From a virus: 64,000 nt of DNA. The notes beneath the pieces are model-generated. The model was not told the DNA's origin and searched no databases. It saw only the letters and a program-made list of their open reading frames with translations. This document shows positions 10,402 through 59,435 of the stretch, one piece after another. The position numbers and the translations under genes were made by a program. Each line of letters begins with the position of its first letter. Within the stretch, counting starts at the first letter, position 1. The DNA is taken from the IMG/VR virus record IMGVR_UViG_3300028048_000053, positions 34,692 through 98,691 of that record; one strand, 5' to 3'.

Positions 10402-10476
10402 GCTGGTGTAGCTCAGCGGCAGAGCACGCGCCTTGTAAGCGCGGGGTCGAGATCTCGGAATTCTCCACCAGCCCCA
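10402..10476 (+). tRNA. tRNA-Thr(TGT), divergent T-arm, CCA encoded
   Basis: Acceptor GCTGGTG/CACCAGC, anticodon stem CGCGC/GCGCG, loop CTTGTAA; the T region GAGATCTCGGAATTCTC is non-canonical. Confidence 0.65.
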
Positions 10477-10861: not shown

Positions 10862-10935
10862 AGGGGATTAGCGTAATGGTAGCGCGGTGGGCTTTGAACC
10901 CATACGTGGAAGTTCGATCCTTCCATCCCCTGCCA
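10862..10935 (+). tRNA. tRNA-Gln(TTG), CCA encoded
   Basis: Acceptor AGGGGAT/ATCCCCT, loop CTTTGAA, T-arm GGAAGTTCGATCCTTCC. Confidence 0.85.
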
Positions 10936-10938
10936 TAT

Positions 10939-11012
10939 ACCGACTTCGTATAGTGGTAGTACAACGGACTCTGACTCCGTTGGTGGTGGTTCAATTCCAT
11001 CAGCCGGTGCCA
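10939..11012 (+). tRNA. tRNA-Gln(CTG), CCA encoded
   Basis: Anticodon stem ACGGA/TCCGT, loop CTCTGAC, T-arm GGTGGTTCAATTCCATC; one A.C mismatch in the acceptor stem. Confidence 0.75.
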
Positions 11013-11223
11013 AGTTTAATAGAGGTATTCAGGTTGGAAATCTGATATAAATCCTCTAAATATATAACCGATAGGATGTAGGCTTAAAAGCAGCCATCAT
11101 TTAAAGAGTAGGTAATTTCCGCGGCGTTATCTTTTAGCGTAGCAGCACACTATCGACCCGGAGAAGGGGACAACGGGTATATAAATTTCCCTTTCTTATT
11201 TTATGTGAAAAAGGTGAATAAAA

Positions 11224-11571
11224 ATGTTTGATGCTCCGACACTTGATAAGTACGATTTTTATTTTTCCAAGGACAAGCAAAAGGTGATTGCGGTTTCTAC
11301 ATATGCTGGTCGTCCTGTTCGCGGGGTGGCTATTTGCAGTCCAGAAGATACCTACGATGTCTGGTCTGGTAAGGTGCTTGCGGCCGCCCGTTGTAACCAG
11401 AAGGTAGCTGAAAAGCGTCTAAAGCGAGCTGAAAAGAAGCTGCGCGAAGCTACGGCTGCATTTGCCCAGGCACAGAAGTATATGCTCGAGATGAATGACT
11501 ACTATGAAGATGCACGCCGCAGTAACTTCGATGCCAAAAAGCAGGTCAAAAATCTTTTGAATGAAATGTAA
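11224..11571 (+). CDS. hypothetical protein
   Basis: ORF track 115 aa; RBS AAAAAGGTGA. Confidence 0.6.
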   Translation: MFDAPTLDKYDFYFSKDKQKVIAVSTYAGRPVRGVAICSPEDTYDVWSGKVLAAARCNQKVAEKRLKRAEKKLREATAAFAQAQKYMLEMNDYYEDARRSNFDAKKQVKNLLNEM

Positions 11572-11597
11572 TCGTCAGGTAAAAGGAGGAAGTTAAT

Positions 11598-12395
11598 ATG
11601 AAAGATGCTCTTGGCGATCGCATGAAAGGTTTTTATGAAGATCGCTATCGTATCTATCTAACGAGACGAATGCCTGTTATTATCCGCGTTGATGGCAACG
11701 CTTTCCACACTTTTACACGCGGACTTGATAGACCGTTTGACGCAGATTTTATGAAAATTATGCAGAAAACTTGTCTATCTCTTTGCCAGAATATCCAAGG
11801 CTGCGTTGGTGGATATGTCCAGAGCGACGAGATTTCTCTCCTTTTGGTTGATTATCAGACCCTTGAATCTGATGCATGGTTCGATTATAACCTCCAGAAG
11901 ATTACTTCACTTGCGGCCGCCCGTGCCACGATGACTTTTAATGCGCTTGTTAGAGAATTGGTCAATAGATATATCCGTAAAGTAAGCAATGATCCTGACA
12001 TGGACGCAAGAAGATTAAACCTTTGGAGCGAAAAGCAGAATCGTGCTATGTTCGATGCTCGTGCCTTCAACATTCCCAAAGAAGAAGTATGCAACTACTT
12101 CATCTGGCGTCAAAAAGATGCCACTCGCAACAGTATTCAGGCCGCTGGCCAGGCACAATTCTCTCATAAAGAGCTTGAAGGTAAATCTCAGTCTGATATT
12201 CAGGAAATGCTGTTCCAGAAGGGGATTAATTGGAACAATTACACTATCCCCGAAAAGCGCGGCTCTTTTGTGCGAAGATATTTAGAAACTATTGGACAGG
12301 AAGATGGGACACTTACTGTGCGTCGTCCTTGGTGCATTGATGATGAAATGCCTATTCTCACCGAAGATAGAGGCTATATCGAAGAACTTATTTGA
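11598..12395 (+). CDS. Thg1-like protein (tRNA-His guanylyltransferase / 3-5 polymerase family)
   Basis: N-terminal RVDGNAFHTF...PFD motif typical of the Thg1/TLP family; 265 aa; RBS AAAGGAGG. Confidence 0.6.
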   Translation: MKDALGDRMKGFYEDRYRIYLTRRMPVIIRVDGNAFHTFTRGLDRPFDADFMKIMQKTCLSLCQNIQGCVGGYVQSDEISLLLVDYQTLESDAWFDYNLQKITSLAAARATMTFNALVRELVNRYIRKVSNDPDMDARRLNLWSEKQNRAMFDARAFNIPKEEVCNYFIWRQKDATRNSIQAAGQAQFSHKELEGKSQSDIQEMLFQKGINWNNYTIPEKRGSFVRRYLETIGQEDGTLTVRRPWCIDDEMPILTEDRGYIEELI

Positions 12396-12430
12396 AAAAT
12401 TATAAAAAATATTATATAATATATATAGAA
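12393..12430 (+). promoter_or_regulatory. promoter-like repeat copy
   Basis: consensus repeat. Confidence 0.5.
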
Positions 12431-12451
12431 AATGAGAAAGGAAATATTGAT

Positions 12452-12709
12452 ATGAAATATGTCTGTTTCTCTGGTGGAAATGGTTACTGCGGCTGCGACT
12501 ATGAAGATTATGTCGCCATTGCAGACGATACTCCGGAAAGTTGGATAGAACAAATGTCCGTGGAGCGAGCATACGAAAACGCTGAGTCTTATGCTCACGT
12601 TGCTTTGGACGATGATTTCACAGCGGAAGAAGAGCAAGAATATTATGACAACCTCGATTTTGATTGGCACTATGTAACCGAAGAAATCTATTTAGAAAAT
12701 ACAAACTAA
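12452..12709 (+). CDS. small acidic Cys-rich protein
   Basis: ATG 12452 after GAAAGGAAA RBS; the ORF-track extension covers the promoter. Confidence 0.55.
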   Translation: MKYVCFSGGNGYCGCDYEDYVAIADDTPESWIEQMSVERAYENAESYAHVALDDDFTAEEEQEYYDNLDFDWHYVTEEIYLENTN

Positions 12710-12755
12710 TTTGAAAATTTTAAAAAAATATTATATAATATATATGTAAGATAAA
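12710..12755 (+). promoter_or_regulatory. promoter-like repeat copy upstream of the suppressor tRNA cluster
   Basis: consensus repeat. Confidence 0.5.
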
Positions 12756-12868
12756 GAAAGACACAAACAGCAATTTTCAAGGATTTAATTTCAAGGATTT
12801 AGTTTCTGATTAAAAAATTACCTAATAGTGTCTTGTTTGGATAATGGGGGTTGGAGTAACGGTTATGT

Positions 12869-12962
12869 GGCGGGTTCGTTTAACGGTAAGACAGCTGACT
12901 CTAAATCAGTCCATAGCCCCCTGAAGGAGCTTATGAAGGTTCGAATCCTTCACCCGCTGCCA
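12869..12962 (+). tRNA. amber suppressor tRNA, anticodon CTA, type II (long variable arm), discriminator G, CCA encoded
   Basis: Acceptor GGCGGGT/ACCCGCT, D-stem GTTT/AGAC, anticodon stem GCTGA/TCAGT, loop CTCTAAA (U33 and A37 present), 24-nt variable arm, T-arm GAAGGTTCGAATCCTTC. Confidence 0.75.
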
Positions 12963-13017
12963 AAGTCAAAGTTTACTGGAGTTCGTCGTGACTATAACCC
13001 TAAACCAGTAGTCCTAT

Positions 13018-13600
13018 GCGGGTATGGTGGAATGGTAGACACGGCGGACTTTTGTCCCAAGTACAAGGACATGAGCACTAGGATAGGAAACTTCCTAAGT
13101 GAATGTTGGCTAATTCGGCGAAAGTCTCAAGCAGATAACGCCGAGCTAAATTGAATATAGGTGCAACAAAGCTGAAATACAGAGAGGTCGCCTGTAGGTC
13201 TATGGCAGTTGAATAAGCAACTCCGCTTGTATGTATTAAGATTGAGCAGTAGTTGTTAAATGGAGTTAGATGAACAGCCTATACTCATAAATGTGTAGAG
13301 ACTATATACCAACTACCTAAGTCAAACGAGTTAGTAAGGAAACGGCACATTGAGTGGGAGCGTTTGATATGGTAAAGACATAGTCCAGACTACAACTTAA
13401 TAATAAAGCAGGTGCTACGAAGCCATTGACGTAAGTCCTTGTGGAGACTATCGTGGAACTCGAAAGAGCGGAAAGAGAAGCTGTAGTAAATGGAGTTAGA
13501 TGAACAGCCTGCTTTTATGTATTAAGGCTATGGTGACATAGAGTAGTAAGAAAATCCTCTGAGCTGAGCTCGTGCCGGTTCGAGTCCGGCTACCCGCACC
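13018..13600 (+). tRNA. tRNA-Leu(TAA) interrupted by a group I intron in the anticodon loop (exons 13018-13051 and 13550-13600)
   Basis: 5-prime half GCGGGTA-TG-GTG..CAC-G-GCGGA-CTT, 3-prime half AAAA-TCCTC-TGAGCTGAGCTCG-GCCGGTTCGAGTCCGGC-TACCCGC-A-CCA. The spliced loop is CTTAAAA. Confidence 0.75.
13052..13549 (+). ncRNA. group I intron (498 nt, no ORF) within tRNA-Leu(TAA)
   Basis: Inserted after U34 as in the classical tRNA-Leu(UAA) intron; exon ends in U, intron ends in G. R-like element TAGAGACTATA near 13296, S-like ACATAGTCC near 13378, internal 24-nt direct repeat. Confidence 0.7.
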
Positions 13601-13758
13601 ACGTAAGAGCCATACAGCAAAATTTTATTTACAAGATATTTTTTATAGAATTTTGATAAGGATAGTCCAGAGATAGGCTCTTGTAATTAAAAAATCTCTG
13701 GCTGTAAAAGGGAAGTTAGAAATTTGAATAATATTTCTAATTTCCCTATTTTTTATTT

Positions 13759-13835
13759 GCGCCAGTAGCTCAACAGGACAGAGCACGAGATTTCTAATCT
13801 TGGTGTTGAGGGTTCAAGTCCTTCCTGGCGTGCCA
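13759..13835 (+). tRNA. tRNA-Arg(TCT), CCA encoded
   Basis: Acceptor GCGCCAG/CTGGCGT, anticodon stem CGAGA/TCTTG, loop TTTCTAA, T-arm GAGGGTTCAAGTCCTTC. Confidence 0.8.
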
Positions 13836-13957
13836 ATTAGCATAAGAAGCTAGAGCGCAAGACCTCGGCGTTTTACCCGATAGTTGACGCGGCTGGCCAG
13901 GACGCCAAAAGAAGATGTAACAGTAGAGACCACACTTGCCTTTCTTATGCTTTATAT

Positions 13958-14033
13958 GCGCCCGTGGTGTAACGGTAACACAGCGGACTTTTAATCCGTC
14001 AGAGCGTGGGTTCGAATCCCACCGGGCGCACCA
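13958..14033 (+). tRNA. tRNA-Lys(TTT), CCA encoded
   Basis: Acceptor GCGCCCG/CGGGCGC, anticodon stem GCGGA/TCCGT, loop CTTTTAA, T-arm GTGGGTTCGAATCCCAC. Confidence 0.85.
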
Positions 14034-14036
14034 TCT

Positions 14037-14112
14037 GTCGAGGTACTCAAGTCTGGTTTAAGAGGCGGGTCTGCAAAATCCGTATTCGTGGGTCCGAATC
14101 CCACCCTCGACT
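14037..14112 (+). tRNA. tRNA-Cys(GCA), no CCA
   Basis: Acceptor GTCGAGG/CCTCGAC, anticodon stem CGGGT/ATCCG, loop CTGCAAA, T-arm GTGGGTCCGAATCCCAC. Confidence 0.8.
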
Positions 14113-14186
14113 CGGTATCTTATAGGAGCCTTCTCGTGGCGATACTGTTTTAACTAATCCTATAATAATAGAGAGGAGCTGTTTTT

Positions 14187-14837
14187 ATGGCATACATCTA
14201 TTTAATCACAAACAAAACTAATTAGAAACAATATGTAGGAAAAACCCAAAATAGTATAGAATAGCGGTGGAAAGAACACTGTCGAGATTATAAAAAGGAG
14301 CATAACGAAAAACGTCCATTGTATGCGGCTATGCGTAAGTATGGTATTGAAAATTTTGAAATTTCATTAATTGAAGAAGTTTCTCCTGAGTAGAACCTTG
14401 AAGAGCGTGAAATTTACTGGATAGACTATTATCAAACTTATAACAAGGGCTATAATGCTACTATTGGAGGAGACGGTAAATCTTTTTTGCCATATAAAAC
14501 TATACTAGAGTTATGGAATCAAGGACTAAATTGTAAACAAATTGGAGAACAGCTACATTGCGATGCCGGGTGGATTGGTGTGATTTTAAAAAGTCATAAT
14601 GTCTCCCCCCAAGAAATTTAGAATAAGTCCTTTGTTGATAAGAAAATTCGAGTTTGTCAAATAGATAAAAAAACAAATTAGATTATAGCAATTTTTCCAT
14701 CCTATAGAAGTGCCGCTCAAGCAATGCTTGATAAAAAATTAACAAATTGTAAAGTTGGTACTGGAGCTGCTCATATAGGAGAAGTTTGCTCAAACAAAAG
14801 AAAGACCTTTGCAGGCTTTAAATGGAAAAAGGCTTAA
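14187..14837 (+). CDS. GIY-YIG homing endonuclease (reads through 5 in-frame TAG)
   Basis: AYIYLITNKTN-TAG-KQYVGKT...RWKEH GIY-YIG motif plus a C-terminal NUMOD-like region; continuous frame from ATG 14187 to TAA 14835-14837. Confidence 0.75.
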
Positions 14838-14902
14838 AAAACGGCCTATTTAATCAAATTACGGTCTTGAAACAAGACTAAGAGAAAAAGGAGATTTAAA
14901 AT

Positions 14903-15346
14903 ATGAACAAGTTTATGAACGGCCTCAAGAATGAGTCCAACTACACCTATACTGAGAACGGCGCCTTGACTTACAAGTCTACCCTCAACGGTCTGCTCGA
15001 CCTGTTCGCTCTCGGTGGTGCGTATCGTACCCGTACCGATGCCGATGTCATCAATCTCTTTAAGAAAGCCTTTGAAGAGAATGAAACTTATGCTCTCAAG
15101 TGTCTTTTTTATCTCCGTGATATTAGAGGCGGACAGGGAGAGCGTAGATTTTTTCGTGTGGTTATTAAGTGGCTTGCTAATAATCATCCGGACGTTATAC
15201 GACGTAATCTAAAATATATTCCAGAGTATGGTCGATATGACGATTTATATATTTTTATAGACACCCCTGTTGAAGAGGATATGTGGAATTTTTTGTGCCA
15301 TGAAATAGCTGAAGGAATTAAAATTATCGAAAGCATTAAAGAATAA
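14903..15346 (+). CDS. N-terminal part of a split DUF2828/vWA-like gene (TENGA motif)
   Basis: 147 aa, NxxYTYTENGALTYKST motif. The vWA-containing C-terminal part resumes at 16240 after an inserted HTH plus GIY-YIG cassette. Confidence 0.55.
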   Translation: MNKFMNGLKNESNYTYTENGALTYKSTLNGLLDLFALGGAYRTRTDADVINLFKKAFEENETYALKCLFYLRDIRGGQGERRFFRVVIKWLANNHPDVIRRNLKYIPEYGRYDDLYIFIDTPVEEDMWNFLCHEIAEGIKIIESIKE

Positions 15347-15409
15347 TTCTTGGACAGTTTTAAACAAAATGTTTAATCAAAATTTTATATACAGTAGGAG
15401 GATGACAAC

Positions 15410-15589
15410 ATGACTCTTCAAGAAGTGTGTAAAATTTTGGGAAAGAGTGAAAAAACTCTAATTTATAGTTTTAAAAGAACCTAGTTAAACCTTGCTAAAA
15501 AAGGTATCATCCTTCTAAAAACTGGTGTAGGCAAAAATGCCGACTATCAAATAACCTATGAGGAGAATGATACAAATGAAAAAGGATAA
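15410..15589 (+). CDS. small HTH-like protein, leader of a mobile endonuclease cassette (one in-frame TAG at codon 25)
   Basis: MTLQEVCKILGKSEKTLIYSFKRT-TAG-LNLAKKGII; its paralog at 35500 has a TAG at the identical codon. Confidence 0.5.
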
Positions 15590-16235
15590 TACAATATTCA
15601 AAGTATATATTCATAAATTGAAAATAGATGGAAGAGTCTATGTTGGATAGACGAGTTCATCTATGGAAGAGCGCGCTGGCAGTAACGGATATAGATATAA
15701 ACATTGCACCAAATTTTGGCACGCGATTTAGAAATATGGGTGGGAGTCTTTTGAGCATATATTAATTAAGGATGGATTAACTTTAGACGAAGCAAATCAG
15801 TTAGAAGATGAACTGATATTAAAATATAATAGCATTGAAAATGGATTTAATATTAATCGCGGTGGACTAAATCATCTTTGGACAGATGAATAGCGAAAAA
15901 TAATGTCCGAAAGAAATATGGGAGAAAAAAATCCCAATTACGGGAAACCGCGTTCCGAAGAGACCAAGAAAAAAATAGGAGCTGCAAATGCAGTTGCTCA
16001 ACTGGGAAAGCATCACTCTGAAGAAACCAAAAAGAAAATGAGCAAATCTCATCGTAAGCAAGAACCTATTTTATGTGTCGAAACGGGAAATATTTATAAC
16101 GATGCGATAGAAGCCGCAGAATCCATTGGTAAAAAAGCTTCTGCAGCGAATCATATTAGAGAAGTTTGCGATGGTAAGAGATTGTCGGCTTATTCATATA
16201 CATGGAAATATCTTGACAAAGATAAAGGAGAATAA
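15576..16235 (+). CDS. GIY-YIG homing endonuclease (3 in-frame TAG, one at the YVG-Q-T motif position)
   Basis: VYIHKL..GRVYVG-TAG-TS ... AI-TAG-KYGWESFEH; C-terminal NUMOD-like repeats; ends TAA 16233-16235. Confidence 0.7.
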
Positions 16236-16239
16236 AAAA

Positions 16240-17355
16240 ATGAAACTTAATAGTGGCTTAATTTTTAAATGGCTCAAATCCGAAAACACTTCCTCGAAAG
16301 AGTCACGACACCTTGGAAAATTAACTCGTCAACATCTTGGAATGACATCGCGCCAATATAGAAAAATGTTGAGTGAAGGCAGACGCAAAACAAAGGTGCT
16401 GGAACGTCTTATGTCTGCAAACGAATGGGATAAAATAGACTTTTCCAAAATTCCTTCTCGCGCCGGTATGATTTACAAGAACGCGTTCGCGCGTCACGAC
16501 CTCGAGCGTATGCGCCAGGGCGCCACCCAGTCCTACGAGGATTTCGTCAAGGACAAGAACACCAAGGTTAATGCCAAGGCTTTGTATCCGTTTGACGTAG
16601 TTAAGGAGGCTATGGCTTTCGGTCAATGGGGCGGATACTACGGCTATGGCCGCAAGTCTCAGGCCCTCGACAACACTGAGCGTCTGATGGTCAATAAGTA
16701 CTGGGAGAACCTTGAAGATGTGTTCAATGGATACAGCTACAACGGTATCTGCGTCTGTGACACCTCAGGAAGCATGTATGGTGACCCCCTTGCAGTAGCC
16801 ATCTCTATTGCGATGTATTGTGCCGAGCATAATACCGGAGACTTTGCTAATCATTTCTTCACCTTTAGTAATAATCCTACTTTTGTAGAGATTGAAGGGG
16901 TTGATTTTGTTGATAAGGTCAACCGCATTGCCAAGGCTGATTGGGGTGGCAGCACCAATATCGAAGCGGTGTTTGATAAGATGCTCGCTATCGCAAAGCA
17001 GAACCATCTGAGCCAGGATGATATTCCAAATATTATAATTGTTTCGGATATGGAATTTGATGACTGCGTTTGCGGCTATGGAGGAAATGGACGCTGGGGC
17101 CAAGGAAGAGAAGTTAATCAGACACTTTTTGAAACCATTGAAAAACATTGGAATGCAGCAGGGTATCGTCTTCCTTTGGTAACATTTTGGAATGTGCAAG
17201 CACGTCAAAATAATATTCCTATGCGATCTACAAAATATGTAAATTTTATTAGTGGAATGTCTCCGATGATTTTTGAACAAGTTATGAAAAATCTTACGGC
17301 GATAGATCTTGTAATGGATAAACTTAATAATAAACGTTATGAGTGTATTCATTAA
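16240..17355 (+). CDS. C-terminal part of a split DUF2828-like gene, von Willebrand A domain (DTSGSM MIDAS motif)
   Basis: ATG 16240 with RBS AAGGAGAA; 372 aa with ICVCDTSGSMYGDP; the ORF-track 5-prime extension overlaps the GIY-YIG gene. Confidence 0.6.
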   Translation: MKLNSGLIFKWLKSENTSSKESRHLGKLTRQHLGMTSRQYRKMLSEGRRKTKVLERLMSANEWDKIDFSKIPSRAGMIYKNAFARHDLERMRQGATQSYEDFVKDKNTKVNAKALYPFDVVKEAMAFGQWGGYYGYGRKSQALDNTERLMVNKYWENLEDVFNGYSYNGICVCDTSGSMYGDPLAVAISIAMYCAEHNTGDFANHFFTFSNNPTFVEIEGVDFVDKVNRIAKADWGGSTNIEAVFDKMLAIAKQNHLSQDDIPNIIIVSDMEFDDCVCGYGGNGRWGQGREVNQTLFETIEKHWNAAGYRLPLVTFWNVQARQNNIPMRSTKYVNFISGMSPMIFEQVMKNLTAIDLVMDKLNNKRYECIH

Positions 17356-17384
17356 TCATATCTAAAAAAATAATTAAATTTTCG

Positions 17385-17420
17385 GGCAAATTAAGTTAAA
17401 TAATTTGCCCGAAAATTTAT
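17385..17420 (+). terminator. hairpin terminator (GGGCAAATTAAGTTAAATAATTTGCCC)
   Basis: Perfect inverted repeat after the vWA gene followed by an A/T run. Confidence 0.5.
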
Positions 17421-17454
17421 ATATAATAGAAAAATAAAAAGGGGTTTTTAAGAT

Positions 17455-18426
17455 ATGATTATTTCAAAAGAAAAGCAATAGGAAATTGATAGTTTGTCAA
17501 CTATTTCAATAGATATTAGAGCAAAAGATTTAACTGGAAAAAGACAAGGGTCAATCACGTTTTTAAAGCCAGCAGAAAAAATCAATAAAAGAATTTATTG
17601 GTGGGTGATATGTGATTGTGGTAATATTGAAAAAGTTCGAGCAGATAGTAAAATATAGCGTTGTAAAGAGTGCAATGCAAAAAGAACTGGTGAACAAAAC
17701 AGAGGAAAAAATCTTATAGATTTAACCAATCAAAGATTTGGTAGATTAACAGTATTATTTTTACAAAACGAAAGAAGAAATGGTAATGTTATGTGGCATT
17801 GTAAATGCGACTGTGGTAATGAATGTGATGTTCAATCTACAAGTTTAACAAGTGGGAATACTAAATCTTGTGGATGTTAGAAAAGAGAACGTGCTTATTT
17901 TACGACTTTAAAAAAAGATCTCTCAGGAAAAAAATTTGGGTATTTAACCGTATTAAAAGAAACTAAAGAAAGACAATATGGAGGAAAAGTTATATGGGAG
18001 TGTCAGTGTGATTGTGGTAATATTGTCTATCTCAACACTGGACGTTTAACCAGTGGAAACGATACTTCTTGCGGATGTAAAAAATAGTCAATTGGTGTTG
18101 AAAATATAAAAAATATTTTAAATTAGAACAATATTGTATATAAAAAAGAATACAAATTCAATGATTACTAGGAACGAAGGTATGATTTTGCGATTTTTAA
18201 TAATGAAGGATTGGTAATTCGTTTAATTGAATTTGATGGGGAATAGCATTATAAATATACTGGGGGATGGAATGACCAAAAATCATTAGAAAAAAATAAA
18301 TTACACGATAAAGAAAAAAATGAATATGCTTTGTCTCATAATATTCCATTGGTTCGTATTCCATATTGGAAACGAGATAATATCACTCTTGACATGATAA
18401 TGGGAGATAAATATTTGGTAAAATGA
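17455..18426 (+). CDS. Zn-ribbon repeat plus PD-(D/E)xK (DUF559/Vsr-like) nuclease, about 10 in-frame TAG
   Basis: Repeated W.C.CDCGN....SCGC zinc ribbons, then YDFAIFNNEGLVIRLIEFDGE-TAG-HY (canonical DGEQH). Single frame from ATG 17455 to TGA 18424-18426. Confidence 0.65.
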
Positions 18427-18458
18427 AACATACTTATATTTTTGAGATTGAAACAAAT

Positions 18459-18596
18459 ATGTGCGCCGAAAGCACTGAAAAAATTGTTATTAAAACAAAA
18501 ACTCAGAGATTAGCTTATCTCAAATTAAATAAGCTCATGGATAAGAGAAATGATATTCTCTATTGGCACATTAATTCTTGCAAAGAGGTGGTGTAA
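18459..18596 (+). CDS. small hypothetical ORF (45 aa)
   Basis: ATG..TAA with no internal stops; weak RBS. Confidence 0.25.
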   Translation: MCAESTEKIVIKTKTQRLAYLKLNKLMDKRNDILYWHINSCKEVV

Positions 18597-18598
18597 CC

Positions 18599-18892
18599 AT
18601 GCTTCCAGAAGAAAAAATGTATATAACAAAAATAGAAAATCATATTCCTCTTACCGAAGAAGAACTTGGTACTCTGGTTCTCTTTTATTCTATTGAGAAA
18701 GAATATGGTGAAGATCATAGGTGGCAAAGAGAAGTAACTTCAATCGTACAATTAGGAGAAAGATATTTCGCAGTTGAATGGTATCAAGGATTAACCGAGA
18801 TGCAGGAAAACGACTTTTTTGATCAACCTTATGAAGTTGAATTAAAAGAATATGAAAAAACCATAACCGTAAAAGAATGGGTGAAGAAATAA
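18599..18892 (+). CDS. hypothetical protein
   Basis: ATG 18599 after AAAGAGGTGGTG RBS; the ORF-track TTG extension is unlikely. Confidence 0.55.
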   Translation: MLPEEKMYITKIENHIPLTEEELGTLVLFYSIEKEYGEDHRWQREVTSIVQLGERYFAVEWYQGLTEMQENDFFDQPYEVELKEYEKTITVKEWVKK

Positions 18893-18895
18893 AAC

Positions 18896-19237
18896 ATGAC
18901 AAATACTGAATATTTAAATACAAAATCTTATCTCGCTCAGTAGGCATTGGATTTAGCAAATACGCTATCCCATATTGACGAACAGCTTGATGATATGTAT
19001 AAAATTAACTTATATCTACTTCGTAGATATAAAGATGATTTAATCAAAGAATTTAATATTGATATACCAGAAGGTGTACTAGAGGATCCCTGGTTTAAAC
19101 TTCTCGAAAAAACTTTTAATCAAAAAGTAGGCTTTGAAAATGAAACATTAATCTTATCACTTATCTCAAATCGTATTAAAGATAAGATGAAAGAAGAAAT
19201 GCCAGATCCCTGGTATTGTTATGGATTTGGAGGTTGA
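18896..19237 (+). CDS. hypothetical protein (one in-frame TAG at 18944)
   Basis: ATG 18896 is in frame with the 18947..19237 ORF across TAG; ends TGA. Confidence 0.5.
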
Positions 19238-55018: not shown

Positions 55019-55158
55019 ATAATTAAAAAATTTTTTATATAATAATCGTAGATTAAGGAGATAAAAATTCTTTATAAAAAACTAATGGAGAATGGGACGA
55101 AAATGATTAATTTATTATTAACATTTTTCATATAATTATGAAAGGTGATGATAATAAA

Positions 55159-55935
55159 ATGGAAAAAGACGAAATTAATTTAGGAAAAGCAGAAGATTTG
55201 CGAGGATAGCGTTTTGGGTTTTTAGAACCGCAATATAGAACAAAAAATATTGGTAAACATACAGCATGGAAATGTAAATGTGTTAGAGATAATAATTTAG
55301 TATCAGTGAGAATAGACCATTTAAAAGAGGGTAGAGTAATATCTTGTGGTTGCTATAATAAAGAATAGGCTAAATAGAAAATAACTAAATTATAGTATAA
55401 AGGTAAAAATATGAAAGATATTACTGGACTTAAAAGTGGTTTTTTAATTGCTATTGAGCCAACTGAAAAAAGAATTTCTTATGGAGCAAACAATTCTAGA
55501 GTTGTATGGAAATGTCAATGTTTAAGTCCAATACATAAAATACCAGTTTTTTGTGAAGCAACTACGACTGATATTACTACAAAAAATAAATTATCTTGTG
55601 GTTGTATTAAATCGTATGGCGAGGGAAGAATAATAGAAATTTTATTACAAAATAATATTTTATTTGAATAGCAAAAAACTTTTGACACTTGTCGTTTTCC
55701 AAAAACAAATTATTTAGCATATTTTGATTTTTACCTACCAAAATATAATATTTTAATTGAATTTGATGGTAAGTAGCATTATTTATAGAATGCTGGATGG
55801 AATGAGTCATTAGAGAGTATTTAGGAAAGAGATAATTATAAAAATCAATGGTGTAGAGAACATAATATTTAGTTAATTAGAATCCCATACTGGGAAAGAG
55901 ATAATATAACATTAAAGGATATTATTTATGAATGA
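55159..55935 (+). CDS. Zn-ribbon plus PD-(D/E)xK (DUF559-like) nuclease, paralog of 17455 (about 10 in-frame TAG)
   Basis: Single frame from ATG 55159 to TGA 55933-55935; W.C.C...SCGC ribbons; LIEFDGK-TAG-HY ... LIRIPYWERDNITL. Confidence 0.6.
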
Positions 55936-58406: not shown

Positions 58407-58505
58407 TTTTAGGCCAAAAGCTGTTAGTTTATATTTTATAAAACCGATATTATATCGGGAGGAATTTTCTTCCTCCCGATAATTTATATATGGAGGCTTT
58501 GTAAG

Positions 58506-59435
58506 ATGCCAGTAATTGATTTATTAGGAAAGAAATTTGGTAAATTAACAGTTTTAGAAAGAGACATGTCTAAAACCGGTGGAGCAGCATATTGGATTTG
58601 TAAATGTGACTGTGGTAATATTATTTCTACAAGAGGAACATCTTTACGGGACGGCTCAAAACAAGATTGTGGATGCATAAATAAGGAAAAAAGAAGAAAT
58701 AATGTTGACATTACAAAATATATAGGTTAGCGCTTTGGAAGATTCGTTGTTAAAGAAAGAGATCTTACTAAACCTATAGGACATGGAAATTCTTCTTGGT
58801 GGATATGTCAATGCGACTGTGGAAATATTAAGTCCTGTGATATTACACAATTAAAACGAGGAAATATTTAGTCTTGTGGTTGTTTAAAAACTGAAATGTT
58901 AAACAAAAGAAATATAAAGGATATAACAAATTAGCGTTTTGGAATGGTAGTAGCAAAAAAAAATACTTATCAAAAAAGCACCCACAATAGCTACATTTGG
59001 TAGTGTGAGTGTGATTGCGGTAATACTGAGTATTTTGTATCAGCAGAATCACTATTATCTGGAAAGATTCATTCTTGCGGTTGTAATACAAGATCCTATG
59101 GAGAACGAAAGATAAATGAATTATTGCTACAAAATAATATATTATTTATTCAAGAATTTAAATTTTTGGATTCTGATATTTCAAAATTAAGATATGATTT
59201 TGCTATTGTCGATAATAACTATAAGCCAATACGCTTAATTGAATTTGATGGAGAATAGCATTTTAAGCCAAAAGAATGTTTTGGCGGAGAAAAAGCTTTT
59301 CAAATATAGTAGCAGCACGATATGTTAAAAAATCAATATGCTAAAAAAAAGAATATTCCATTAGTACGTATCCCCTACTATGAATTAAACAATATTACAT
59401 TAGAAATGATAATGGGGGATGAATTTTTAACATGA
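58506..59435 (+). CDS. Zn-ribbon plus PD-(D/E)xK (DUF559-like) nuclease, third paralog (about 9 in-frame TAG including two consecutive)
   Basis: Single frame from ATG 58506 to TGA 59433-59435; W.CKCDCGN..DCGC ribbons x3; IEFDGE-TAG-HF ... QI-TAG-TAG-QHD ... PLVRIPYYELNNITL. Confidence 0.6.

Follow-up and report, generated by a model that had tools for sequence, protein, structure and literature searches.

The amber-suppressor tRNA gene at 12869-12962 (+) of the window, which is the whole 64,000-nt stretch of viral DNA analysed here, probably encodes a glutamine-inserting tRNA(CUA) of a large phage that partly uses TAG as a sense codon, and its long variable arm would be a "pseudo-anticodon" that restores the anticodon-dependent recognition by GlnRS (or GluRS/GatCAB) lost at position 36. 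We put this joint reading, which is drawn from sequence comparison, at a probability of about 0.55. More generally, the odds are about even that recoded phages have evolved "split-identity" tRNAs, in which a stop-reading arm serves the ribosome and a tethered hairpin with the cognate sense anticodon serves the synthetase. Such tethered second anticodons (CUG or UUG for Gln, CCA for Trp) appear to be undescribed for any natural tRNA.

TAG as a glutamine codon

TAG is a sense codon in some genes of this large phage, lysis, tail-fibre and homing-endonuclease genes among them. The recoding is partial, as gyrA, ligA, Thg1 and an MVP-like gene contain no TAG. In three protein families, TAG falls on Gln columns that are invariant when homologues at least 90% identical are excluded. 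The PIN/PhoH-like ATPase gene (44500-45774 (+), 5 in-frame TAGs) has TAG at the invariant Q of the GDxxTQxDL motif (118/118), the lysis-type gene with NAGPA and SPOR domains (45813-46667 (+), 7 in-frame TAGs) has it at the Q of the SPOR motif 'YYKVQVGAF' (117/118), and the endolysin-type Amidase_2 gene (46680-47555 (+), 4 in-frame TAGs) has it at the Q of 'GWIQFEICE' (119/119). Q dominates three further TAG columns. In the Amidase_2 gene, a second TAG lies at a Q-dominated column (102/119). Summed over 16 TAG columns, the BLOSUM62 score is 22.3 for Gln, 8.3 for Glu, 2.7 for Lys, 0.3 for Ser and -19.1 for Tyr. Besides, paralogue columns at TAG positions read Q/TAG, and S or K occurs in some variable columns, as the preliminary description had noted for a few positions.

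A tRNA(CUA) is found here together with in-frame TAG in genuine phage genes where the homologues have Gln, which is the pattern of code 15. As far as alignments can settle the matter, TAG is Gln in the window and should be translated as Gln. The preliminary description had favoured Gln at TAG positions, rightly, and had called the decoding identity genuinely uncertain; with the invariant Gln columns and the BLOSUM62 sums it is much less so. P0121 and P0241 were rejected as independent evidence on TAG, because they are 99% identical, have Q at every TAG and are code-15 translations of the same phage. For other phages, tRNA(CUA)s have been reported to be charged by E. coli and Prevotella GlnRS, with Gln insertion detected by mass spectrometry (PMC12636597).

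Structure and body type of the tRNA(CUA)

ARAGORN called a 94-nt tRNA with anticodon CTA at position 33 and an encoded CCA. The Rfam model RF00005 matches 12869-12962 with 53.3 bits (gathering score 29) and places a 21-nt insertion within the variable region, and the variable loop is not short. A second copy, identical in sequence, exists on an independent metagenome contig (L487), so a sequencing error is excluded for G1. The following parts, all on the plus strand, were read from the sequence. The 5' strand of the acceptor stem, GGCGGGU (12869-12875), forms 7 bp with ACCCGCU (12952-12958), beginning with a G1·U72 wobble, G2:C71 and C3:G70, and is separated from the D arm by U8 and C9. The D arm (12878-12892) has a 4-bp stem GUUU/AGAC and a 7-nt loop AACGGUA lacking nucleotide 17; by this parse and the anticodon positions of each isotype, it belongs to the Gln/Lys-type class, not to type II. 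G10 and A26 are present. The decoding anticodon arm GCUGA-CUCUAAA-UCAGU (12894-12910) contains CUA at 12901-12903 and A36-A37-A38, the T arm GAAGG-UUCGAAU-CCUUC (12935-12951, also aligned by Rfam) has a 5-bp stem, and the discriminator G73 (12959) precedes CCA at 12960-12962.

The variable region between the anticodon and T arms, in the parse and the Rfam alignment, covers 24 nt (12911-12934), CCAUAGCCCCCUGAAGGAGCUUAU. Its sequence is exactly as first described, with a length put at roughly 24 nt, and the discriminator G was also given correctly. RNAfold predicts a hairpin at 12915-12931 with the stem segments AGC/GCU and CC/GG and a bulged A18, in agreement with stem covariation in the family described below, and the base of the arm is unpaired for 4 nt on the 5' side and 3 nt on the 3' side. 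The arm folds with an energy no better than shuffled sequence (z of -0.9 and -0.75 in RNAfold), so the evidence for the hairpin is comparison with other genes, not thermodynamics. The loop, read against the consensus of 50 family members, is CCCUGAA (12919-12925). Its triplet CUG (12921-12923) is a Gln anticodon, and the A-A after it corresponds to A37 and A38. The complete set Y34-U35-G36-A37 is found only in this loop (12921-12924), whereas the decoding anticodon has C34, U35 and A36. At the equivalent of U33 the loop has C, not U. The glutamine anticodon in the arm had gone unremarked in the preliminary description.

Arm length aside, the molecule is Gln-type in its sequence features. The anticodon stands at position 33 in 30 of 52 sense tRNA-Gln genes and in 25 of 46 arm-bearing CUA tRNAs, which have it at 33-34, while it lies at 35-36 in most Ser, Leu and Tyr tRNAs (Ser: 55/75 genes) and at 36 in the tRNA-Ser(GCU) of the window. 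The 1:72 pair is G:C in 63 of 70 tRNA-Ser genes of the same loci, against G·U here, and it is weak or mismatched in 47 of 50 arm-bearing CUA tRNAs. In bacteria, most tRNA-Ser conserve G1-C72 and G2-C71 (PMC9976931). G2:C71 is present in 38/50 members of the arm-bearing family, N73 is G in 37 and A in 13, and the 3:70 pair, which is C3:G70 in the window instead of G3:C70, is split 24/24. Among 43 sense tRNA-Gln genes of the same loci, 1:72 is U:A in 35 and N73 is G in 27 and A in 15; since tRNA-Gln also has G73, this base does not discriminate Ser from Gln. The nearest homologues with the same arm (L004, L025 and L488) carry the textbook Gln set U1:A72, G2:C71, G3:C70 and G73.

In terms of class features, the tRNA shares with bacterial tRNA-Ser a long variable arm (more than about 13 nt) with a hairpin, and lacks G1-C72, the enlarged D loop and type-II core, and a Ser-aligned codon. 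A73, required for Tyr and Leu and found in 31/33 Tyr and 119/122 Leu tRNAs, is replaced by G73, and the G1-C72 of tRNA-Tyr by G1·U72. The features of the tRNA-Gln type, namely a weak or breakable 1:72 pair, G2:C71, G73 and G10, are all present. "Ser-like rather than Gln-like", as the tRNA had been called, fails on the anticodon position, the 1:72 pair, the Gln-set homologues and the non-discriminating G73, and a derivation from tRNA-Ser or tRNA-Tyr runs against the D arm, the 1:72 pair and the TAG columns. The Gln-type body and TAG = Gln instead support the other option of the preliminary description, that the Gln-charging route would accept an unusual scaffold.

Two other classes were rejected. 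The tRNA-Pyl label of ARAGORN comes from CUA alone, and the variable region has 24 nt where the Pyl loop is very short; no pyl genes were seen among the window ORFs examined, which cover part of the window. An allo-tRNA (Mukai 2017) would have an 8/4 or 9/3 body, not a 7-bp acceptor stem with a 5-bp T stem.

Sense anticodons in the arms of phage suppressors

The same kind of arm, on a Gln-type body, is present in about 50 distinct tRNA(CUA) genes of phages. This family was gathered with search patterns in which the anticodon loop context and GGTTCGAATCC are fixed, and it is therefore not a full census. The long arm is a feature in common with many other suppressors of phages. The arm-loop consensus is Y-U-(C/U)UG-A-R. 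Among 50 unique genes, Y32 occurs in 44, U33 in 35, C34 in 40, U34 in 10, A37 in 46 and R38 in 40; U35 and G36 were the anchor of the loop analysis and were left out of the evidence. The same 7-mers form the anticodon loops of sense tRNA-Gln genes. For example, the window has two sense tRNA-Gln genes with short variable loops (UUG and CUG, 10862-11012 (+)), which ARAGORN confirmed at the starts first given, 10862 and 10939, and suppressors of other phages have the anticodon loops of both, CUUUGAA and CUCUGAC, as arm loops.

The stems of the CUA arms covary: 87% of cells are paired, against at most 50% with a slid partner, there are 33 double changes, and none of 500 shuffles matches the pairing. 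Many family stems close the 7-nt loop with only 2-3 bp, weaker than a real anticodon stem, and the stem in the window is bulged. The motif is kept while the real anticodon stems differ between suppressors. Competition for UCAG between CUGA of the arm loop and its identical counterpart, the 5' strand of the anticodon stem, was considered and rejected, as the motif persists with quite different anticodon stems.

Long-arm opal suppressors, tRNA(UCA), served as a control. Their arms contain UCCAA in 21 of 22 cases, mostly inside CUCCAAA or GUCCAAA, which presents the Trp anticodon, and most of these tRNAs have Trp-type bodies; the loop is (C/G)U-CCA-AA on 5-bp stems. U[CU]UGA is present in 34/65 CUA arms and 0/22 UCA arms, and UCCAA is absent from all 65 CUA arms (Fisher p = 3e-19). 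In each of two independent classes of suppressors, Gln and Trp, the arm "anticodon" agrees with the type of body. Neither motif was found in 161 arms of Ser, Leu and Tyr tRNAs, and a long variable arm is absent from all 62 sense tRNA-Gln genes. An arm-anchored scan (TCTGARG...GGTTCGAATCC) was uninformative on whether sense tRNAs bear the arm, since it returned mostly ordinary tRNAs, the string being the 3' strand of the anticodon stem.

Of the CUA suppressors in a length-unbiased scan, about 55% have no arm at all, so the arm is not required in general, and related phages with a short-arm suppressor exist (L007). A metagenome scan for the arm class of the window returned only L487 and L488. 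In a scan of genome contigs, four genes with the arm turned up on MAG contigs, whose bins are Bacillota, Acutalibacteraceae, 'Mollicutes' and Erysipelotrichaceae; the latter two contigs (162-164 kb) are probably misbinned phages, and the bins give a weak hint that the hosts of arm-bearing phages are Bacillota.

Proposed role of the arm, alternatives and known systems

Every stop-codon suppressor must mutate its anticodon, and the anticodon is a major identity element for both GlnRS and TrpRS. For GlnRS, the identity elements are U35 and G36 of the anticodon together with the acceptor end, and identity mutations cost up to 10^5-fold (PMC9976931). The change from G36 to A36 for reading UAG would remove a major anticodon element for GlnRS, or for a non-discriminating GluRS followed by GatCAB. 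The flexibly tethered hairpin would offer an intact C/U34-U35-G36-A37 loop to the anticodon-binding domain of the synthetase, this contact would restore binding or activation, and the true CUA arm would decode on the ribosome, which tolerates long variable arms. We infer both the synthetase as the binding partner and the manner of binding. With a GlnRS monomer that spans from acceptor end to anticodon, the arm would need either to swing over to where the anticodon arm lies or to make a second contact, which counts against the mechanism. Gln is inserted by amber suppressors whose 1:72 pair is destabilised (PMC9976931), and the combination of G1·U72, G2:C71, G73 and a long arm could permit some mischarging by SerRS.

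Borges et al. raised the open question of how phages efficiently switch a host with the standard code to TAG = Gln or TGA = Trp, and a sense anticodon copied into the suppressor itself would be an answer both simple and testable. If true, it would be a new natural principle of tRNA identity, by which charging and decoding are uncoupled in nature for class I synthetases that depend on the anticodon, and genetic-code expansion would gain a ready-made means of having suppressors charged by anticodon-dependent synthetases. The arm triplet would be a sequence signature predicting the amino acid that a suppressor inserts. Non-canonical structures are suspected to hinder suppressor detection (Borges et al.), and the arm may likewise affect the detection of such tRNAs, as in the 'Pyl' label here.

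A pseudo-anticodon arm on a Gln-inserting tRNA might instead serve a partner other than a synthetase, which is possible at distinctly lower odds. Candidates are a phage or host factor timing the code switch, a tRNA-modifying or repair enzyme, and an anticodon-directed nuclease with the arm as decoy. Selection on the loop sequence does not identify the binder, many suppressors manage without an arm, and tRNA-handling genes lie nearby (Thg1, 11598-12395; RNA ligase, 39029-40291). However, the arm triplet tracks the acceptor type, YUG with Gln bodies and CCA with Trp bodies, and only aminoacylation needs this link. Sense tRNA-Gln and tRNA-Trp genes, equally visible to such factors, have no arm.

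It is doubtful that the arm is an evolutionary leftover with at most a structural role, in which the original Gln anticodon arm was displaced by an inserted or duplicated CUA arm. The order, always decoding arm first and sense-type arm second, would fit this, as would Gln-family arm stems shorter than real anticodon stems and arm-less suppressors at work in related phages. A relic is expected to decay first in the loop. Instead, divergence has affected stems, linkers, acceptor stems and real anticodon stems but spared the loop, and the stems of the arm covary. The same design also exists in the separate Trp/UCA family, and the arm stem of the window is unlike the anticodon stems of its own tRNA-Gln genes.

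That the arm is mainly an anti-determinant against class II synthetases, notably LysRS, or part of a two-headed decoder that also reads CAG, is quite improbable. LysRS comes in from the side of the variable loop and mischarges amber suppressors that contain U35, and the D arm and anticodon stem of the tRNA(CUA) resemble those of tRNA-Lys in the window. Such U35 suppressors are prone to Lys, and a change from A73 to G73 shifts them towards Gln (PMC9976931). A steric block, however, needs no conserved Gln or Trp anticodon loop; for a second decoder, many arm stems and loops are too short, and the phage already has two sense tRNA-Gln genes. Least likely of all is a type-II suppressor derived from tRNA-Ser or tRNA-Tyr and charged by SerRS or TyrRS, with TAG at least partly Ser or Tyr: the long arm, G73, G2:C71, G1, the S or K columns and the dominance of the arm in serine identity (PMC9976931) speak for it, as do genuinely type-II-looking suppressors elsewhere (L078 and L116), but the latter kind has larger D regions and no YUGA motif in our data set, the unpaired arm base is unlike Ser arms, and the TAG columns, D arm, anticodon position, 1:72 pair and absence of A73 given above all stand against it.

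The pseudo-anticodon reading can be compared with several known systems. The phage 'code 15' suppressors (tRNA-Sup-CUA; crAss-like, Lak, phAss and other recoded phages) and the E. coli supE-type tRNA-Gln(CUA) share CUA and a Gln-type acceptor end with the tRNA studied here, and the former also TAG = Gln in late or lysis genes and reliance on the host synthetase. supE and many phage suppressors have an ordinary variable loop of 4-5 nt, against 24 nt here, and the searchable literature makes no mention of a long variable arm or an anticodon-like loop in code-15 suppressors. Type II tRNAs (Ser, Leu, Tyr; tRNA-Sec) also have a long hairpin between the anticodon and T arms, and Ser and Sec have G73. 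Type II arms are recognised by shape. In the tRNA(CUA), by contrast, the D loop is small, the 1:72 pair is weak, the linkers at the arm base are long and unpaired, and the arm-loop sequence is conserved.

In nematode nev-tRNAs, the extra arm sets an identity that mismatches the anticodon. Like them, allo-tRNAs (PMC5389517), some of which are suppressors, have a long variable arm that uncouples amino-acid identity from the anticodon. Both depend on SerRS or LeuRS, enzymes indifferent to the anticodon, and the body of allo-tRNAs is 8/4 or 9/3, whereas the phage tRNA(CUA) is 7/5 and would target anticodon-reading class I enzymes.

No natural pseudo-anticodon was found in the searchable literature, where the only precedent is engineered: a pseudo-anticodon in the variable arm enhanced the aminoacylation and specificity of an amber suppressor (Mukai 2020, Int J Mol Sci 21:7793, PMC7590224). 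There, too, the hairpin bears the cognate sense anticodon, in an anticodon-loop context as here, and is meant to recruit the anticodon-binding domain of the synthetase. That design is a synthetic allo-tRNA 9/3 chassis in which the pseudo-anticodon is GUG for His, used with a HisRS to which an extra anticodon-binding domain is fused; the phage design is natural, with a 7/5 Gln-type body and a presumably unmodified synthetase. Hairpins copying a cognate anticodon loop also occur in mRNA mimics of anticodon arms (the E. coli thrS operator with ThrRS; yeast aaRS mRNAs) and in viral tRNA-like structures, and the mRNA-operator mimics are bound by the anticodon-binding domain of the synthetase according to identity rules (PMC9976931). 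These mimics regulate translation or sit in RNAs other than tRNA, but the phage mimic lies inside a decoding tRNA and would serve its own charging.

As for the surroundings of the gene, blastn of 11000-18900 against the phage collection gave only similarity in the Thg1 gene and no close relative, and tblastx gave 40-75% protein identity for the relatives compared. A theta (HDV-like) ribozyme was considered in the 55-nt spacer after the tRNA (from 12963), where AGUCA/UGACU and ACUGG/CCAGU pairs stand in the right order. It was rejected, with no convincing P3/P4, no G at the cleavage site and no Rfam match in the spacer; most tRNAs adjoining theta ribozymes lack an encoded CCA, which this tRNA has. 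About 130 nt upstream of the tRNA, a consensus scan alone picks out a putative promoter-like site, TTGAAA-17-TATAAT (12711-12739 (+), 11/12 matches).

Structure and body type of the suppressor tRNA

Of the 16 tRNA genes that ARAGORN reported within the window's first 14 kb, one is a tRNA(CUA) of 94 nt at 12869-12962 (+) with the anticodon CTA at position 33. The label “Pyl” given by ARAGORN was rejected, as it rests on the CTA anticodon only. Against the Rfam tRNA model the gene scores 53.3 bits, with a 21-nt insertion placed in the variable region. Read from the sequence, it consists of an acceptor stem GGCGGGU/ACCCGCU (G1·U72, G2:C71, C3:G70), U8 and C9, a D stem GUUU/AGAC with the 7-nt loop AACGGUA, the anticodon arm GCUGA-CUCUAAA-UCAGU, a variable region of 24 nt (CCAUAGCCCCCUGAAGGAGCUUAU; 12911-12934, +), the T arm GAAGG-UUCGAAU-CCUUC, G73 and a CCA encoded in the gene. 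The preliminary description of a 24-nt variable arm with G73 is therefore exact. An identical gene is found in an independent metagenome contig (L487). RNAfold draws a hairpin for the variable arm, with an energy no better than that of shuffled sequence.

We compared the isotypes by anticodon position and acceptor end in roughly 480 loci fetched from IMG/VR, metagenomes or MAG contigs (L-numbers). In these loci, the anticodon lies at position 33-34 in sense tRNA-Gln genes and mostly at 35-36 in Ser, Leu and Tyr tRNAs; the 1:72 pair of sense tRNA-Gln is U1:A72 or similarly weak and N73 is G or A, G1:C72 is present in 63 of 70 tRNA-Ser genes, and A73 marks Tyr and Leu tRNAs. Gln identity is known to depend on U35, G36 and acceptor-end elements, among them N73 and a destabilised 1:72 pair, while bacterial Ser identity involves the conserved G1-C72/G2-C71 and the type-II tertiary shape (Giegé & Eriani 2023, PMC9976931). 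The window tRNA(CUA) has a small D loop, anticodon position 33, a G·U pair at 1:72, G2:C71 and G73, and its closest homologues with the same arm (L004/L026/L488 and L025) carry the textbook Gln set of U1:A72, G2:C71, G3:C70 and G73. Judged by these sequence features, the body is Gln-type and not Ser-type. It had been called “Ser-like rather than Gln-like”, which is contradicted by the D loop, anticodon position and G1·U72, while G73 is common to the Gln and Ser sets and doesn't discriminate between them.

Relatives with the window's arm type encode, besides the tRNA(CUA) with the pseudo-anticodon arm, a second tRNA(CUA) that has a short variable loop and lies about 500 nt away (L004, 3019-3112 and 3541-3613; L025, 8021-8095 and 8521-8614; L026, 5863-5935 and 6364-6457), unlike the window, which has the long-arm gene only.

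Sense anticodons in the arms of amber and opal suppressors

A first IMG/VR scan, with the window's anticodon arm followed by the T loop and a variable region of any length, gave 29 loci, and the tRNA(CUA) of 12 of them has a long arm with YUGA. The second scan, for long arms only with any anticodon stem, gave at least 119 stretches; the matches listed, pooled with those of the MAG-contig scan, comprise 65 unique tRNA(CUA) genes with a long arm. In 50 of these 65 listed genes the arm can be anchored by treating a YUG triplet as positions 34-36 within a loop of 7 nt, and the 50 anchored loops have Y32 in 44, U33 in 35, C34 in 40, U34 in 10, A37 in 46 and R38 in 40. The most frequent arm loops among the matches listed are CUCUGAA, UUCUGAG, CUUUGAA and CUCUGAC, 7-mers that also serve as anticodon loops in the sense tRNA-Gln genes of these loci; CUUUGAA and CUCUGAC are also the loops of the window's own sense tRNA-Gln genes. 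The arm loop of the window tRNA(CUA) is CCCUGAA. Among the matches listed, the three loop-closing pairs co-vary (87% paired versus at most 50% with the partner slid), with 33 double changes, and none of 500 shuffles equals the observed pairing. Acceptor stems, linkers and real anticodon stems diverge widely across the arm-bearing tRNAs, so we rejected the idea that the arm loop competes with the anticodon stem.

As a control, the same scan for opal suppressors (anticodon loop CUUCAAA) found 22 unique long-arm tRNA(UCA) genes, in loci within L138-L257 (e.g. L200, L169, L179, L186, L192 and L150). The ends are of the Trp type in most of them (16 of 22 with A1:U72, 19 of 22 with G73), and the arm typically forms a stem of about 5 bp around a CUCCAAA or GUCCAAA loop, the former being the anticodon loop in 36 of 39 sense tRNA-Trp genes of the same loci. 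Their arm stems also co-vary strongly (84% paired, 35 double changes, 18 further pair types). The two arm motifs are mutually exclusive, with the CUA arms counted among the matches listed: UCCAA occurs in 21 of 22 UCA arms versus 0 of 65 CUA arms (p = 3e-19), and U[CU]UGA in 34 of 65 CUA arms versus 0 of 22 UCA arms. Neither motif was found in 161 Ser, Leu and Tyr arms, and no long variable arm in 62 sense tRNA-Gln genes. These sequence comparisons show that two independent suppressor families, Gln and Trp, each conserve a predicted hairpin in which the cognate sense anticodon is displayed.

Long-arm tRNA(CUA) genes without the motif have type-II-like D regions, e.g. L078, L116 and L095. Those in L078/L100, L116, L095, L042 and L049 have Ser/Leu/Tyr-like D arms and no YUGA, and in those phages TAG may be read as a residue different from Gln; recognition by SerRS and LeuRS does not involve the anticodon. 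Several odd long-arm phage tRNAs are not explained by the pseudo-anticodon idea: “Trp” (cca) tRNAs of 84-91 nt in L041, L064, L084 and L102, some having the CCA anticodon on a type-II-like body, an initiator-like tRNA(CAU) of 88 nt with CAU also within the arm loop (L138), and a tRNA(UAU) of 92 nt with arm loop CUCACAA (L105). Arm-bearing suppressors also occur in a 163,874-bp contig of a “Mollicutes” MAG (L358) and a 161,537-bp contig of an “Erysipelotrichaceae” MAG (L373), which are probably large phage genomes binned with bacteria.

Meaning of TAG and the proposed mechanism

The window is a phage-like segment with 38% GC. In-frame TAGs are absent from gyrA, NAD-ligase, Thg1, RNA ligase and the MVP-like protein, and many occur in clearly real genes, such as the PIN/PhoH ATPase, NAGPA+SPOR protein, Amidase_2 endolysin, tail-fibre-like proteins, GIY-YIG genes and genes with the terminal IEFDGE(TAG)H motif. 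For the first three, 120 database homologues were aligned per protein, leaving out those at least 90% identical, because P0121, one such homologue, is a code-15 translation of the same phage. Three of 16 TAG columns are invariant Gln, in the SPOR motif YYKVQVGAF (117 of 118), the PhoH motif GDxxTQxDL (118 of 118) and the amidase motif GWIQFEICE (119 of 119); another three are Gln-dominated and the remaining columns variable. The BLOSUM62 sums over the 16 columns are 22.3 for Gln, 8.3 for Glu, 2.7 for Lys, 0.3 for Ser and -19.1 for Tyr. In alignments of the window's paralogues, too, Q and TAG replace each other, and variable sites show K or G. This evidence argues that TAG is Gln in the window genes, and bears out the preference for Gln in the preliminary description. 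It agrees with code 15, which has been reported in other gut phages and verified there by mass spectrometry (PMC12636597). Three paralogous genes (17452-18426, 55111-55935 and 58407-59435, +) have repeated C-x-C-D-C-G-N motifs, 7-9 in-frame TAGs each and a C-terminal LIEFDGE(TAG)H, with TAG at the identical motif position in all three.

The suppressor anticodons would lose identity by G36 to A36 (Gln) or C34 to U34 (Trp), for which the hairpin might compensate by offering an authentic loop to the anticodon-binding domain of the synthetase. In favour of this mechanism, the arm shares its starting hinge with the anticodon arm and has a similar length, so it is conceivable that the two swap places on the enzyme. 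The unpaired linkers that tether the arm are unusually long; on the 3' side most of them measure 6-7 nt among the matches listed. Class I GlnRS approaches from the D-loop side, hence the variable region faces solvent, and some synthetases can charge acceptor helices better when an anticodon hairpin is supplied in trans. For GlnRS, the cost of identity mutations reaches 10^5-fold, with G36 acting in both binding and recognition (PMC9976931). As a further point in favour, an engineered V-arm pseudo-anticodon, resembling the natural phage arm, raised amber-suppressor charging (Mukai 2020, PMC7590224). Against the mechanism, Gln-family arm stems are short, the U33 equivalent is missing from the window arm loop, an arm is absent in over half of the CUA suppressors from the scan open to any variable-region length, and a related phage makes do with an arm-less suppressor. 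Hosts without GlnRS would use ND-GluRS and GatCAB, which likewise recognise YUG and U1:A72 (PMC9976931). Full-text searches of the openly accessible literature, and the main papers on recoding in phages, theta ribozymes, phAss-1 and orthogonal translation systems from metagenomes, gave no mention of natural suppressor tRNAs whose variable arm is long or anticodon-like. In these sources a fifth arm with the cognate anticodon appears undescribed for phage suppressor tRNAs, though subscription journals may contain earlier work.

Neighbourhood and other window features

About 130 nt upstream of the tRNA(CUA) is a promoter-like site close to the consensus. The window ORFs examined included no gene for a synthetase or release factor. 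The next gene downstream is a tRNA-Leu(UAA) at 13018-13602 (+), missed by both ARAGORN and the Rfam tRNA model. A group I intron of roughly 508 nt interrupts this gene following U34 (Rfam RF00028, 46.1 bits, E = 2e-10, slightly below the gathering score). The intron is confirmed by an exact intron-less tRNA-Leu in the related contig L487 (2662-2746, minus strand), identical to the predicted spliced product. An additional tRNA at 10402-10473 (+; Rfam 49.1 bits), not reported by ARAGORN, has an atypical-looking T-loop region (…GATCTCGGAATTC…).

A DUF2828/DUF7788 (vWA-like) gene is apparently split (14903-15346, 15555-16235 and 16126-17355, +). A TAG-containing GIY-YIG homing-endonuclease ORF parts its N- from its C-terminal portions, which suggests an intron or mobile insertion. 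The MVP-like ORF (30750-33254, +; 834 aa, no TAG) matches PF11978 (3e-19) and PF17795 (major vault protein shoulder and repeat domains), a match unusual in a phage, and is followed by an SPFH/Band 7 gene at 40296-41264.
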